A DNA stretch of 28,031 nucleotides from IMG/VR virus record IMGVR_UViG_2740892212_000023. One strand, written 5' to 3'. Below the pieces are notes generated by a model, which worked only from the letters and a program-made list of their open reading frames with translations, did no database searches and was not told the DNA's origin. The translations under genes were made by a program, and so were the position numbers. The stretch's first letter is position 1. Each line of letters begins with the position of its first letter. This document shows positions 7,092 through 23,391 of this stretch, in pieces. The DNA comes from a virus. Lineage: Duplodnaviria; Heunggongvirae; Uroviricota; Caudoviricetes.

Positions 7092-8565
7092 TAACCTGAG
7101 CGACGAAGAGCAAATAGAATTGCTCGAGCTACTCGAAGAAGAAGAGAACTACCGGAACACACACCTGCTATATGAATTTACGCCATACAGCAAACAGCGT
7201 GAGTTCATCGACGCCGGGCATGACTATCCAGAGCGCTGTTTTATGGCTGGTAACCAGCTTGGTAAGTCATTTACTGGGGCTGCTGAAGTCGCGTTTCACC
7301 TTACCGGGCGTTATCCGGGCACAAAAGGCTATCCTGCTGATGGTAAATATGGCGGAGAGTGGAAAGGTAAGCGTTTCTATGAGCCTGTTGTCTTCTGGAT
7401 TGGTGGCGAGACAAACGAGACTGTAACCAAAACGACTCAACGCATCCTGTGCGGTCGTATCGAAGAGAATGACGAGCCTGGCTACGGTTCCATACCGAAA
7501 GAGGACATCATTAGCTGGAAGAAGTCTCCTTTCTTTCCGAACCTTGTTGATCATCTTCTGGTTAAGCATCACACGGCTGATGGCGTTGAAGATGGCATTT
7601 CAATCTGCTACTTCAAACCATACTCGCAAGGCCGCGCTCGCTGGCAGGGTGACACAATCCACGGCGTGTGGTTTGATGAAGAGCCACCATACAGCATTTA
7701 TGGCGAAGGGCTTACCCGTACCAACAAATACGGGCAATTCTCGATTCTGACGTTTACCCCGCTGATGGGGATGTCTGACGTTGTTACCAAGTTCCTGAAG
7801 AATCCCAGCAAGTCTCAGAAAGTGGTCAACATGACCATCTATGACGCTGAGCACTACACCGACGAGCAGAAAGAGCAAATCATCGCATCCTATCCTGAGC
7901 ATGAGAGAGAGGCGCGTGCTCGCGGTATTCCTACGATGGGTAGCGGTCGAATCTTCCAGATACCGGAAGAGACGATTAAGTGTCAGCCGTTCGAGTGTCC
8001 TGATCACTTCTACGTCATCAATGCAATGGACTTCGGATGGGATCACCCACAGGCACACATCCAGCTTTGGTGGGATAAAGACGAGGACGTGATTTATCTT
8101 TCTCGCGTCTGGAAGGCCAAACAGAAGAAGGCGACAGAGGCATGGAGTGCTGTTAAAGCATGGAGCAAAAACACCCCTACGGCTTGGCCTCATGACGGGC
8201 ATCAGCACGAAAAGGGAGGTGGCGCTCAGCTCAAGGAACAATACGCCGACGCTGGGTTCGACATGTTGCCAGATCATGCAACATGGCCTGATGGAGGTAA
8301 TGCGGTCGAACCCGGGATAGCAGAGATACGCGACATGATGCTCGACGGTCGTTTCAAGGTATTTAACACCTGCGAGCCATTCTTTGAAGAGTTTCGCCTG
8401 TATCACCGTGATGAGAACGGGAAGATCGTAAAGCTAAATGACGACATCCTTTCTGCTGTTCGCTATGGCTACATGATGAGGCGTTTTGCAATACAGATGC
8501 GAGACATCAAAGATCCTAAAGAGATTGATTACTCAAGCTACAACATACCTTGCGGAGTTGGATGA
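7069..8565 (+). CDS. Terminase large subunit (P22 gp2-type)
   Basis: 498-aa product with the N-terminus [37 protein letters not shown]… as in P22 gp2. Overlaps the terminase small subunit by 23 nt. Confidence 0.95.
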
Positions 8566-20668: not shown

Positions 20669-21118
20669 CTATTTTTTAAGGTAATAATCATCAAAATCGC
20701 AAGAAGCGGATATCACAGAACTTGAATCCATAGAAAAAGACAGGGTTTCGCATGCCTTTCCGGCCTGATGATATGCATGGATATCACCGGATACATATCC
20801 TCCTGTAGAAAACAACGATTTTTCACCGTTTTTTTCTACAAGAATGTGCTTATCTGAATCATTAATAAACCAAATGGAAATAGAGTGACTTTCGCCAAGG
20901 TCTGTTCTATTGAACACCTTAGGTTGGGTACCCTTGACAGCATTTTCGGCTCGCATAATCAGTTCAGCGCTTTTTTTGCTATTTTTTTGTTCTGTATAGA
21001 TTTTGTCTGCCACAAAATAAACAATGGCAATGGCTAACAAAGATAGGGAAATCAGCAATGCCTTTTTAATCAATTTTTTGGCATCCCTGTAAATCTCAAC
21101 TGATAATTTTTCACTCAC
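20669..21118 (-). CDS. Small membrane-anchored protein of unknown function (sieA-position moron)
   Basis: Minus-strand ORF 20669..21193. Likely start is GTG 21118 preceded by AAGGAGG; ATG 21193 is the alternative. One N-terminal TM helix (ALLISLSLLAIAIVYFVA) then a ~110-aa extracytoplasmic domain. AT-rich compared with the structural genes. Confidence 0.5.
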   Translation of the reverse strand: MSEKLSVEIYRDAKKLIKKALLISLSLLAIAIVYFVADKIYTEQKNSKKSAELIMRAENAVKGTQPKVFNRTDLGESHSISIWFINDSDKHILVEKNGEKSLFSTGGYVSGDIHAYHQAGKACETLSFSMDSSSVISASCDFDDYYLKK

Positions 21119-21183
21119 ACCAACCTCCTTAGTTTTGTGCAGGATACCAGATGATAATGTGTAGTTGGAGTAGCGCGGTTGTA

Positions 21184-21277
21184 ATGCAAGCATTTTGTTT
21201 TGGTTTTATGCTTGCTTGTATGTGTGTACAGTGCATATAATGCAAGCATACATCACAATAAAGGTGCTTGCATTATG
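21184..21277 (+). promoter_or_regulatory. Promoter with four copies of a 10-bp palindromic operator-like motif ATGCWWGCAT
   Basis: Motif at 21184-21193, 21208-21215 (partial), 21240-21249 and 21265-21273. -35 TTGCTT (21212-21217), 18-bp spacer, consensus -10 TATAAT (21236-21241). The copies overlap the -35, the -10/+1, the RBS/start of the downstream gene and the alternative start of the divergent gene. Confidence 0.55.
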
Positions 21278-22267
21278 ACTGAAAAGAAAAGTGGCGAAGG
21301 GAAAGCTAAGGGCGGTATCGCTCGCGCAAAGTCGCTGACTAAAGAGCAGCGTTCTGAAATAGCAAAGAAAGCAGCGGCTGCAAGATGGAAGGATAAACCA
21401 TTAATTGCTACGCATAAGGGATCGTTCCAGCATGAATTCGGGATTGATGTTGAGTGCTATGTGTTAAATGATGATAACAAAACTGCCGTTATTAGCCAGA
21501 GAGGCATGGGAGAAGCGATTGGTCTTGGCGAAGGTGGCAGCAGGTTGCCAAAGTTTATTCAGGGGAAAACTATTTCTCAGTATATCGGGCATGAATTAAG
21601 GGCAAAACTTGAAAATCCTCTTATTTTTCAATACAAACAGGCGGGCACGAACACTCCAGCTAATCCTGTAATACATGGCTACGATGTAACAATATTAATT
21701 GATTTATGTCGAGCAATCTCTAATGCTAAAGCTGAAGGTAAGTTGCTTTCCAGTCAGGAAGGGATTGCTAAGCAAGCCAGAATCATTATTGATGCATCAG
21801 CCAAGGCGGGCATTCAGGGGCTTGTTTATGCTTTGGCAGGGTATGACAGAACAAAAGAAGAGGTAATTCAAGCATATAAGCGATATGTTGCTGAAGAGGC
21901 TCGTGAGTATGAAAGAGAGTTCACCCCTGAACTTTATGAGCATTGGTATCGTCTGTATGGTATAGACAAACCAGTTAGAGGGCGACCATGGGCGTTTAAA
22001 TATCTTACGATAGATCACATTTATTACCCATTAGCCAGAAGTGAAGGAAAGGTATTTAATTTAGCAAAAACGTCAAAAGAAGAAAAAGGCAGCAAAAACG
22101 ATAAAATACACCAGTTTTTATCAGAGGTTGGAGTTAAGGCTCTTAGAACCCAAATAGGTAAGGTTACTGGTATTGCAATGGTTTCTGATACTCGAGAAGA
22201 GTATGAGAAATACATAGATGAAAAGGTTATTGGACAAAGAACCATAGACTTAAAAGATAAAGAATAA
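21275..22267 (+). CDS. Conserved phage protein with a basic N-terminus (…GGIARAKSLTKEQRSEIAKKAAAARW…); I attribute it to the P63C-domain family from memory
   Basis: ATG 21275 within ORF 21200..22267, giving 330 aa. The N-terminal motif and the following ATHKGSFQHEFGIDVECYVLNDDNKTAVISQRGM block resemble P63C-family proteins. Function unknown. AT-rich. Confidence 0.6.
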   Translation: MTEKKSGEGKAKGGIARAKSLTKEQRSEIAKKAAAARWKDKPLIATHKGSFQHEFGIDVECYVLNDDNKTAVISQRGMGEAIGLGEGGSRLPKFIQGKTISQYIGHELRAKLENPLIFQYKQAGTNTPANPVIHGYDVTILIDLCRAISNAKAEGKLLSSQEGIAKQARIIIDASAKAGIQGLVYALAGYDRTKEEVIQAYKRYVAEEAREYEREFTPELYEHWYRLYGIDKPVRGRPWAFKYLTIDHIYYPLARSEGKVFNLAKTSKEEKGSKNDKIHQFLSEVGVKALRTQIGKVTGIAMVSDTREEYEKYIDEKVIGQRTIDLKDKE

Positions 22268-22273
22268 GAAAAT

Positions 22274-22296
22274 CCCACCGTCAGGTGGGTTTTTTA
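22274..22296. terminator. Bidirectional intrinsic terminator between convergent genes
   Basis: Hairpin CCCAC-CGTCAG-GTGGG with a T-run on the + strand (22290-22296) and an A-run upstream that gives a T-run on the - strand. Confidence 0.6.
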
Positions 22297-22320: not shown

Positions 22321-22857
22321 TCAAACAACCCACCAGTTTGCCTGATTGGATGCCAGCCTTGCAGTTTTTATGGAATTAATTATGCCATGCTCAAGAGCCT
22401 TGTTAGCATCCAAAATGGTCGAGTCTGCTATCAGGGATGCCCACCTAATATGGGTTCCGATGTCGATATTGAACGTCTCAACGAAGCGATCAAGATCGTT
22501 ATCGAGGCATTTCCCGTACTCTCTCAATCTGGCATGGTCGGCGGCTGGGGAGGCAAAGCACCATAATAGAGGATGTAACAGGAATCTTGATAATGGGTTT
22601 GCGAAACGTTCTGAGCCAGCCAGGAAAACGATATTAGCTATGGATTCAACATTGCTTATGTTGTGAGTTCTAACGGTAACAGGGAGTGACTTAAGAAAGT
22701 TATACGCAGTAAAGCCAGCGGCAGTTTCCCCTCCCTGACTTGATATATGGATATTTAATTCAGTTGCGCCTTGAGATAATGCGGTGAGACAGTGGTTCTG
22801 AAGTTGCCCAACAGTGGCAGTGTTAACGGGGCATAAGAAATGAATTGTGTGCAGCAT
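22321..22857 (-). CDS. ClpP-family (S14-like) serine peptidase homologue, 178 aa
   Basis: Co-linear with the ClpP core: …NIHISSQGGETAAGFTAYNFLKSL…ISNVESIANIVFLAGSERFANPLSRFLLHP…DANKALEHGIINSI (ClpP: …YINSPGGVITAGMSIYDTM…[32 protein letters not shown]…SAPEAVEYGLVDSI). Candidate Ser, His and Asp triad positions are conserved. Its start overlaps the stop of the upstream Mnt-like gene. Confidence 0.7.
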   Translation of the reverse strand: MLHTIHFLCPVNTATVGQLQNHCLTALSQGATELNIHISSQGGETAAGFTAYNFLKSLPVTVRTHNISNVESIANIVFLAGSERFANPLSRFLLHPLLWCFASPAADHARLREYGKCLDNDLDRFVETFNIDIGTHIRWASLIADSTILDANKALEHGIINSIKTARLASNQANWWVV

Positions 22858-23105
22858 TATTTTTCATCCTTAGCATACATGGTCTTTAGCGTCTCAAGCA
22901 GCGCCTCTTTGAATTTGTCAGCTTCTTGCTGAGCAAATGACTCAACTGACTTTGGCGACCTATCTTCATCAATCGCGGCTTGCAAAATCATGACGATCTC
23001 GGAGTTAACAGAGCGACCATTTTTTGATGCTCTGACAGCAAGAGCCTCGCGTAAAGATTCAGGGATTCTTACCGTAGTTGGAGAAATTGACACACCCTTT
23101 GCCAT
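22857..23105 (-). CDS. mnt: Mnt-like ribbon-helix-helix repressor
   Basis: 82 aa from ATG 23105 (MAKGVSISPTTVRIPESLREALAVRASKNGRSVNSEIVMILQAAID…), compared with P22 Mnt …FRMPMEVREKLKFRAEANGRSMNSELLQIVQDAL…. Divergent from the arc/ant genes as in the P22 immI region. Confidence 0.75.
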   Translation of the reverse strand: MAKGVSISPTTVRIPESLREALAVRASKNGRSVNSEIVMILQAAIDEDRSPKSVESFAQQEADKFKEALLETLKTMYAKDEK

Positions 23106-23219: not shown

Positions 23220-23391
23220 ATGGAGAAAGAAATAAGTAAGATTTTGGTAAGGATGCCGCAGTCGTTAAAGGATGCCGCAGTCGTTAAAGGATGCTATAGG
23301 TAGCAGGGCAAAGGAAGAGTGCAGGTCGTTTAACTCAGAGGTTATCAAGCGCCTGATAGACAGCTTGAAGAGAGAGGGGGTAATGGTATGA
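23220..23391 (+). pseudogene. arc: arc homologue (ribbon-helix-helix) disrupted by a 19-bp tandem duplication
   Basis: As it stands the frame is MEKEISKILVRMPQSLKDAAVVKGCYR* (stop at 23301). Removing one 19-bp unit restores MEKEISKILVRMPQSLKDAIGSRAKEECRSFNSEVIKRLIDSLKREGVMV, Arc-like (P22 Arc …RWPREVLDLVRKVAEENGRSVNSEIYQRVMESFKKEG…), ending in an ATGA overlap with the next ORF. Confidence 0.7.
23252..23294 (+). repeat. Tandem direct repeat, 2 × 19 bp (GATGCCGCAGTCGTTAAAG) plus a 5-bp partial third copy
   Basis: Units at 23252-23270 and 23271-23289, then GATGC at 23290-23294. The period is not a multiple of 3. Confidence 0.9.

Follow-up and report, generated by a model that had tools for sequence, protein, structure and literature searches.

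A conserved four-site promoter array upstream of transposon-borne P63C-family genes, seen from a P22-like prophage

The P63C gene and its promoter region in the prophage

The DNA analysed here (the window) is a stretch of 28,031 nucleotides from the IMG/VR record IMGVR_UViG_2740892212_000023. It is a segment of a P22-like (Lederbergvirus) prophage with genes for ejection proteins, a small membrane-protein gene at the sieA position, and a P63C-family gene. Past the P63C gene follow a terminator, a ClpP-like gene, a Mnt/Arc-type RHH gene, arc, the sar RNA, ant, the tailspike gene, and the integrase gene. The features of interest are collected in Table 1.

Table 1. Features in and around the four-site array, in window coordinates
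Feature	Position	Strand	Details
Mosaic module: boundary sequence, array and first ~40 codons	21107..21400		95-98% identity, ~100 E. coli prophages
Small membrane-protein gene, sieA position	20669..21118	-	No family match; likely start GTG 21118
S1	21184..21193	+	ATGCAAGCAT, exact; operator-like, most 5' site; centre about -57 from the predicted transcription start
S2	21208..21217	+	ATGCTTGCTT, 1 mismatch; holds the -35 hexamer
-35 hexamer TTGCTT	21212..21217	+	Inside S2; 3/6 consensus matches; family consensus TTGCAT
-10 hexamer TATAAT (perfect)	21236..21241	+	18 nt from the -35; shares its final two bases with the start of S3
S3	21240..21249	+	ATGCAAGCAT, exact; about -8 to +2 of the promoter
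S4	21264..21273	+	GTGCTTGCAT, 1 mismatch; between Shine-Dalgarno and ATG 21275
P63C-family gene, 330 aa	21275..22267	+	PF10546 at residues 202-289; phrog_2384 over full length
N-terminal basic two-helix domain (N-domain)	21299..21388 (codons 9-38)	+	GKAKGGIARAKSLTKEQRSEIAKKAAAARW; proposed (inferred) reader of S1-S4
Bidirectional terminator-like hairpin	22274..22289		Ends the P63C gene unit

The product of the P63C gene matched PF10546 with 35.9 bits (cutoff 26.1) and phrog_2384 with E = 4.5e-103. We found 2766 relatives of this protein, with an unusually high conservation of 55-70% identity across phyla. AlphaFold models its N-domain as two basic helices, as it does the corresponding segment of a small protein described below. 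Neither the N-domain nor the small protein belongs to a family in Pfam or NCBIfam, and neither had a fold match in the PDB. With the N-domain as a query, which is too short for this purpose, tblastn against phage records matched only phage 611R6. PADLOC assigned none of five flanking proteins to a defence family.

The first view of this locus, a sequence-only reading, had described four copies of ATGCWWGCAT around a consensus promoter. All four copies are indeed present between 21184 and 21273, two exact and two with one mismatch. Their centre-to-centre distances are 24, 32, and 24 bp, and they form two inverted pairs, because the central dinucleotide alternates AA/TT/AA/TT from S1 to S4. The same reading would have given the motif up if its frequency did not exceed expectation. 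Formally this is so across the window, where 7 copies with at most one mismatch stand against 7.07 expected and exact copies are only marginally in excess (2 vs 0.36 expected), but the clustering and conservation of the sites override that count. First-order Markov simulations (n = 2000) never placed four sites within 100 bp and placed three there in 23 cases. A search for further copies, which the earlier reading had suggested, found none in the whole window, including the Pant/Pmnt region, or in the complete 611R6 genome (45.9 kb), nor did the extended 14-mer TAATGCWWGCATTA give more credible sites in either.

The promoter itself fits the word “consensus” only in part. Its -10 is perfect and of sigma-70 type, while the only -35 candidate in the window is a weak hexamer at an 18-nt spacing. 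A simple consensus promoter scan of the window did not pick the promoter up, because the -35 is weak. Transcription is predicted to start near 21248, inside S3, and a Shine-Dalgarno sequence (AAAGG) lies at 21260-21264. As the earlier reading had it, the sites thus cover the -35 (S2), the -10/+1 (S3), and the RBS/start region (S4) of the P63C-like gene, which is the anatomy of a repressed promoter and places repeated specific sites where an operator array would have them; also in agreement, no separate repressor gene adjoins the array.

On the other side of the array, the motif had been placed over an alternative start of the divergent membrane-protein gene. S1 does hold the first ATG of the longest ORF (21193-21191, minus strand), but the true start is more likely the GTG at 21118-21116, 5 nt after AGGAGG (21129-21124), which are the start and RBS annotated for P22 sieA. 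S1 is therefore probably upstream of this gene and not inside it, and we saw no convincing -10 for a leftward promoter that would use S1. A block of about 45 bp at 21110-21156 (CACACCAACCTCCTTAGTTTTGTGCAGGATACCA...) is common to the P22 sieA start region and to many E. coli prophages, which have different genes on both sides of it. It looks like a recombination “boundary sequence” that gives an RBS to whatever gene occupies the sieA position.

Several details of the neighbouring immI region are recorded here in their own right. The ClpP-like serine protease gene (PF00574; 22321-22857, minus strand) is directly downstream of the Mnt/Arc-type RHH gene (22857-23105, minus strand), with a 1-base overlap, and is an unusual passenger for that position. 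The arc-like gene (about 23221-23390) contains a perfect 19-bp tandem duplication at 23249-23294 (AAGGATGCCGCAGTCGTTA, 2.4 copies); neither 611R6 nor another E. coli prophage has it in arc. The duplication shifts the frame and leads to a stop after about 27 codons, which probably leaves this prophage without active Arc. Between a 67-aa zinc-ribbon ORF and ant lies a full-length match to RF00262 (23586-23652, minus strand; 74.5 bits, gathering score 43). The match is to sar RNA, the P22 antisense RNA against ant.

Conservation of the array in E. coli and across phyla

The segment from 21107 to about 21400 is common to about 100 E. coli genomes and phage vB_EcoP-611R6. Since the left neighbour is different or missing in E. 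coli relatives that have the same array, the membrane-protein gene lies outside the conserved module; these relatives also have at least six different Mnt alleles. Identity to the window over the array and about 40 codons falls abruptly to 50-60% beyond about 21395, and we therefore regard the array and the N-terminal coding segment as one mosaic module. Among nine E. coli and phage copies, 18 of 125 intergenic columns vary, with none of the variation in the 40 site positions (P = 5e-4).

Some individual copies show breaks within the gene. The window itself has a sharp mosaic joint at about 21390-21400, at the end of the N-domain. In locus L102 (4073/5299), a 1.2-kb insertion splits the P63C gene exactly at residue 38/39, and in an E. 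coli hit (H31, NZ_CM142774.1) the gene is interrupted by an IS5 element.

For distant relatives, we fetched 80 loci, one genome per species, and analysed the 78 with a usable upstream region. Four sites in the same order and orientation precede the P63C-family gene in 53 of the 78 loci. These come from at least six phyla: Pseudomonadota (Alpha-, Beta-, and Gammaproteobacteria), Desulfobacterota, Bacillota (two MAGs), Abditibacteriota, Acidobacteriota, and Myxococcota. Conservation of the core TGCAAGCA/TGCTTGCA is about 100% at each of the sites across the 53 loci, while the spacers hold less than 0.3 bits. Sites that stay while the intervening DNA drifts are the pattern of an operator array, seen both here and in the E. 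coli copies. An extended palindrome or cruciform over the whole array was not conserved in the distant loci, and in their remaining ~329 kb the motif is essentially absent (2 exact copies vs 1.3 expected).

The promoter is conserved together with the sites. Spacings in the 53 loci are 21-25 bp for S1-S2 (mode 23), 30-33 bp for S2-S3 (mode 31), and 22-25 bp for S3-S4 (mode 24). The S2-S3 mode of 31 puts 17 nt between TTGCAT in S2 and the -10, TAnnAT. Because this TAnnAT lies directly 5' of S3 in the 53 loci, with the 17-nt -35/-10 spacer, transcription is expected to start inside S3 and to give a leader of about 25 nt. The distant loci have AGG before S4, and in 36 of them S4 ends within the start codon, the two sharing the AT. 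The array is a family-wide, cross-phylum control region of a transposon-borne gene, and far more general than one prophage.

Array and N-domain occur together. Six of six family members without the N-domain are also without the array, and clades with altered N-termini have other inverted-repeat motifs at the same promoter position, either TATACTTGCCCGAG or ATGCTTAGCAT with TGTCAAGCA. With the main array motif (ATGCAAGCAT) as operator class A, we refer to the two others as class B (TATACTTGCCCGAG) and class C (ATGCTTAGCAT). An IMG/VR scan for the exact inverted pair returned 40 contigs, and the pair precedes an N-domain-encoding gene in 34 of them. Some of the genes behind the pair encode bodies 27-37% identical to the window protein, with N-domains at 50-80%.

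The variant classes and one exceptional contig have features of their own. Class B (L029, L032, L036, L037, L041, L043, L052, L063, and L074) has TATACTTGCYCGGGCA...CTCGGGCAAGTATA nested around GAAGTCAAG/CTTGACTTC, and class C (L060, L071, and L090) has ATGCTTAGCAT and ATGCTTGACA/TGTCAAGCAT. Viral contig L116 carries a cassette at 8155-8190 of S3, a spacer (GGAGGA), S4, and ATG before an unrelated small RHH-like gene that lacks the N-domain. This is a high-GC contig in which a tyrosine integrase gene follows the RHH-like gene, and the 13 kb examined hold no P63C or N-domain gene.

IS1-family elements and the small “histone H1” protein

About half of the array-bearing loci are IS1-family transposons, composed of a transposase gene, the array, the P63C gene, and a small gene annotated as “histone H1.” Around 28 array-bearing loci have the divergent IS1-family transposase gene (PF03400, NF033558; some with an InsA zinc ribbon). 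In its promoter, the reverse complement of S1 provides the -35 (TTGCAT), followed after 17 nt by CATAAT and, 7 nt on, by a leaderless ATG. The elements are 2.3-3.9 kb long, and in 17 loci they are flanked by perfect inverted repeats of 18-19 bp (GGTAGTGGGTCAGTTTGAA) and by target duplications of 8 bp. These IS1-type elements are active transposons with the P63C gene as cargo. Their termini are GGTAGTGGGTCAGTTTGAA, and the array motif is absent outside the internal array, so the sites are not terminal repeats of the IS1 kind. The window has no transposon terminal repeats, and its unit consists of the array, the P63C gene, and the terminator only.

Examples of such elements are L014 1973-4275 and L016 1125-4287, and others are found in L024, L027, L031, L042, L051, L055, L057, L060, L061, L064, L066, L076, L086, and more. 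They have a single-ORF transposase, come from many phyla, and in the longer forms contain extra cargo beyond the transposase. Some of the transposase genes have an analogous repeat, with CTCAAGCAT over the -10 and ATGCTTGAG before the start codon.

The small gene encodes 72-90 residues and lies downstream of, and convergent with, the P63C gene. Its “histone H1” name is that given by NCBI; the family has no Pfam entry and at least 8000 relatives. About 30 residues at the C-terminus of the small protein share homology with the N-terminus of P63C proteins, at tblastn E values of 1e-5 to 1e-9 and with the common pattern GG.ARA..L..E.R.EIA.KAA..RW. The N-domain is thus separable and is found at the C-terminus of a second family. 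The predicted structure of the small protein has three helices (pLDDT 74) and no PDB match.

The small protein has the pattern MPKRSS..LDLNQLAK.IVD... (for example L014 3975-4208, minus strand, with equivalents in about 28 loci). In an Acidobacteriota clade, nearly the whole small protein is apparently fused to the front of the P63C protein. L035 and L088 carry a separate palindrome (ATGCTTA-TCGC-TAAGCAT) at the small gene, overlapping or adjoining its start codon, and in L026 and L030, ATGCTTGAGCG sits in the spacer of the small-gene promoter. Both sequences are related to the array half-site ATGCTTG.

Reading of the sites, related systems, and significance

We favour the interpretation that S1-S4 are the P63C gene's own cis-regulatory region, an autorepression operator read by the N-domain of its product, and give it a probability of roughly 0.55. 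It has three parts, namely that a protein binds the sites, that the binder is the N-domain, and that the effect is repressive, all of which we infer from comparative sequence evidence. A sigma-70-type promoter would be built into four 10-bp protein-recognition sites with the core TGCAAGCA, which the P63C protein would read through its N-terminal basic two-helix domain of about 40 residues. As the protein accumulates, it would occupy the sites and turn its own promoter off (negative autoregulation). Such a circuit would make the unit a self-contained cassette wherever the gene lands, be it an IS1-family transposon or the immI region of a P22-like prophage.

P63C autorepression is favoured because array and N-domain are inherited together, associated on viral contigs, and absent together, because the array persists without transposon proteins, because the P63C protein is the sole N-domain carrier in the complete 611R6 phage genome, and because the transposon ends are unrelated to the motif. 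Of the binders considered by the sequence-only reading, the comparative evidence therefore points to the P63C-like protein with its basic N-terminus, for which composition and linkage suggest a DNA-binding role. The other two did not hold up: conservation of the array upstream of the P63C family in at least six phyla speaks against a host regulator, and the membrane protein is a neighbour that is different or missing in E. coli relatives with the same array. Some observations count the other way. The co-inheritance of array and N-domain could be simple linkage, because the array and the coding region adjoin. A symmetric dimer would be indifferent to the AA/TT alternation, which fits intrastrand pairing, and the spacing within a pair varies from 21 to 25 bp. 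Contig L116, with the cassette before a gene lacking the N-domain, also counts against this interpretation, as does the lack of a Pfam, NCBIfam, or PDB match for the N-domain. In complete transposons, the small protein carries the domain as well and could be the actual regulator.

This last point leads to a broader alternative, that the reader is another transposon protein, either the small “histone H1” protein or the helix-turn-helix of the IS1-family transposase. The array in the prophage would then be an unregulated relic with a constitutive promoter. We consider this unlikely, although the complete transposons that make up about half of the array-bearing loci encode both proteins, the small protein has the same domain as the P63C N-terminus, and S1 supplies the -35 of the leaderless transposase promoter, which puts the array between two genes of the element. 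Against it, the array persists in 25 distant loci and in about 100 E. coli prophages that have no transposase or small gene, the E. coli sites are free of substitutions while their spacers vary, and the complete 611R6 genome has no second domain carrier. For the transposase in particular, the sites to be expected are the terminal repeats (GGTAGTGGGTCAGTTTGAA), whose sequence has no relation to the motif, and no copy of the motif lies at the element ends. The operator class also tracks the P63C clade and not the transposase type, as forms with and without the zinc finger occur in both classes.

A somewhat more doubtful explanation is insulation by RNA fold-back, in which S3 with S4 (and S1 with S2) would serve as inverted repeats and read-through RNA, having both arms, folds and sequesters S4, the Shine-Dalgarno sequence, and the start codon, while the gene's own transcript, starting in S3, stays open. 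Read-through would here come from the phage late operon, and the device is known from IS10 and IS50. The geometry fits that of such elements, with the 5' arm at the predicted own start, the 3' arm over the RBS, and a structure that is stable only in read-through RNA: positions 21176-21290 fold at -50.2 kcal/mol (z = -7.1) and the S3:S4 hairpin alone at -16.4 kcal/mol, burying the Shine-Dalgarno sequence and start codon, while RNA from 21247 (the native leader) is unstructured. Further points in favour are the AA/TT alternation, by which the arms stay complementary, the analogous CTCAAGCAT/ATGCTTGAG repeat at some transposase genes of the same elements, and the L116 cassette before an unrelated gene.

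A hairpin needs no fixed sequence, yet all four sites keep one and the same 8-bp core in 53 loci. Because it is invariant, the core is uninformative on compensatory change; the variable arm positions pair no more than independence predicts, a G-to-A change in S4 of five loci is uncompensated, and the spacers are not complementary between pairs. For S1 and S2, which precede the promoter, a translational block has no relevance. Rfam covariance models gave only spurious miRNA-model matches to the array, far below gathering scores. Fold-back is thus probably an added benefit, a plausible secondary function, and not the reason for the conservation.

The sites might also serve as operators to which an immunity repressor of the phage binds (the Mnt-like RHH protein, Arc, or the immC repressor), or else a transcription factor of E. 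coli. The array does lie in the immI region, 1.6 kb from the Mnt/Arc-type gene, and such repressors typically have palindromic sites over a promoter. This reading is very improbable, as the array is also found in transposons outside phages and in phyla without such regulators in common, and the identical array stands beside at least six Mnt alleles in E. coli prophages and in loci without any. The lack of further copies in the Pant/Pmnt region, the rest of the window, and the 611R6 genome also argues against it. Cross-phylum and cross-context conservation, together with the variable neighbours, exclude the host factor, the phage repressor, and the membrane protein alike. A separate candidate, a phage-specific divergent promoter of the immunity type, was not supported either, given that Mnt/Arc alleles vary and that the array also exists outside phages in IS1-family transposons. 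Finally, a chance cluster or a recent local duplication without function, which the window-wide count at expectation would suit, is already refuted by the simulations, by the retention of the array in 53 distant loci with randomised spacers, and by substitutions that avoid the sites.

Among known systems, the autorepression proposed for the P63C gene resembles in design the C-protein operators of restriction-modification systems (C.PvuII, C.AhdI), as well as further self-limiting circuits that mobile genes carry. With C proteins, too, a mobile gene unit has its own autoregulatory circuit, repeated palindromic boxes lie in the regulator's own promoter, expression is self-limiting after entry into a new host, and transcripts can be leaderless (here that of the transposase in the same elements). 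C proteins are XRE-type helix-turn-helix dimers with two adjacent operators within about 35 bp, whereas the present array has four 10-bp sites over 90 bp, reaching onto the start codon, and its putative reader is an unclassified two-helix basic domain on a 290-residue body. The P22 immI operators (Mnt/Omnt and Arc/Oarc at Pant/Pmnt) share the neighbourhood, the palindromes over promoter hexamers, and the small accessory module, but the array is unrelated to them in sequence, does not depend on which Mnt/Arc alleles are present, and is also found outside phages. MetJ met-box arrays similarly place several short, near-invariant palindromes (8-10 bp), each presumably bound by a dimer, at one promoter; met boxes are contiguous and in tandem, while the array sites are 21-33 bp apart and alternate in orientation.

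Two comparisons come from transposons. Fold-back in IS10 and IS50 also relies on an inverted repeat whose 5' arm is at or ahead of the element's own start and whose 3' arm covers the RBS, but those repeats are element-specific, with no cross-family invariance, whereas the array is one sequence used four times, conserved across phyla, and free of compensatory changes. Repression by IS1 InsA is a likeness in that the parental elements are of the IS1 family and their transposases have an N-terminal helix-turn-helix, with or without a zinc ribbon. InsA acts at terminal repeats, whereas the array motif is internal and persists without a transposase. In the literature, neither the motif nor the function of the P63C domain is treated in any paper that we found, and the same goes for IS1 elements with P63C cargo; the P63C domain and IS1 cargo had incidental mentions only.

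Taken further, these observations suggest, as a tentative reading slightly less likely than not, that the array and about 40 codons form a portable autoregulatory cassette. Its “KGG...ARW” hairpin may be an unrecognised, sequence-specific DNA-binding domain for the 8-bp core TGCAAGCA, which is invariant in at least six phyla, and would be spread on active IS1-type transposons, one of which would have been captured by P22-like phages, and the sites may double as an RNA fold-back. Under the same tentative reading, this domain would be the basic helical hairpin of the small proteins now annotated as “histone H1,” with their at least 8000 relatives.

If the N-domain is the reader, it would be a new and very widespread DNA-binding domain that comes with its recognition sequence. 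It would also give a first functional handle on the P63C proteins (phrog_2384) and the small “histone H1” proteins, both of no known function, and the immI “moron” gene of P22-like coliphages would turn out to be IS1-family transposon cargo with a host-independent control circuit. A control sequence that is invariant from Acidobacteriota to E. coli is unusual and offers a ready-made promoter/operator pair. Such tight self-control hints that the P63C protein may be harmful when overproduced, which bears on its possible role in exclusion or defence.
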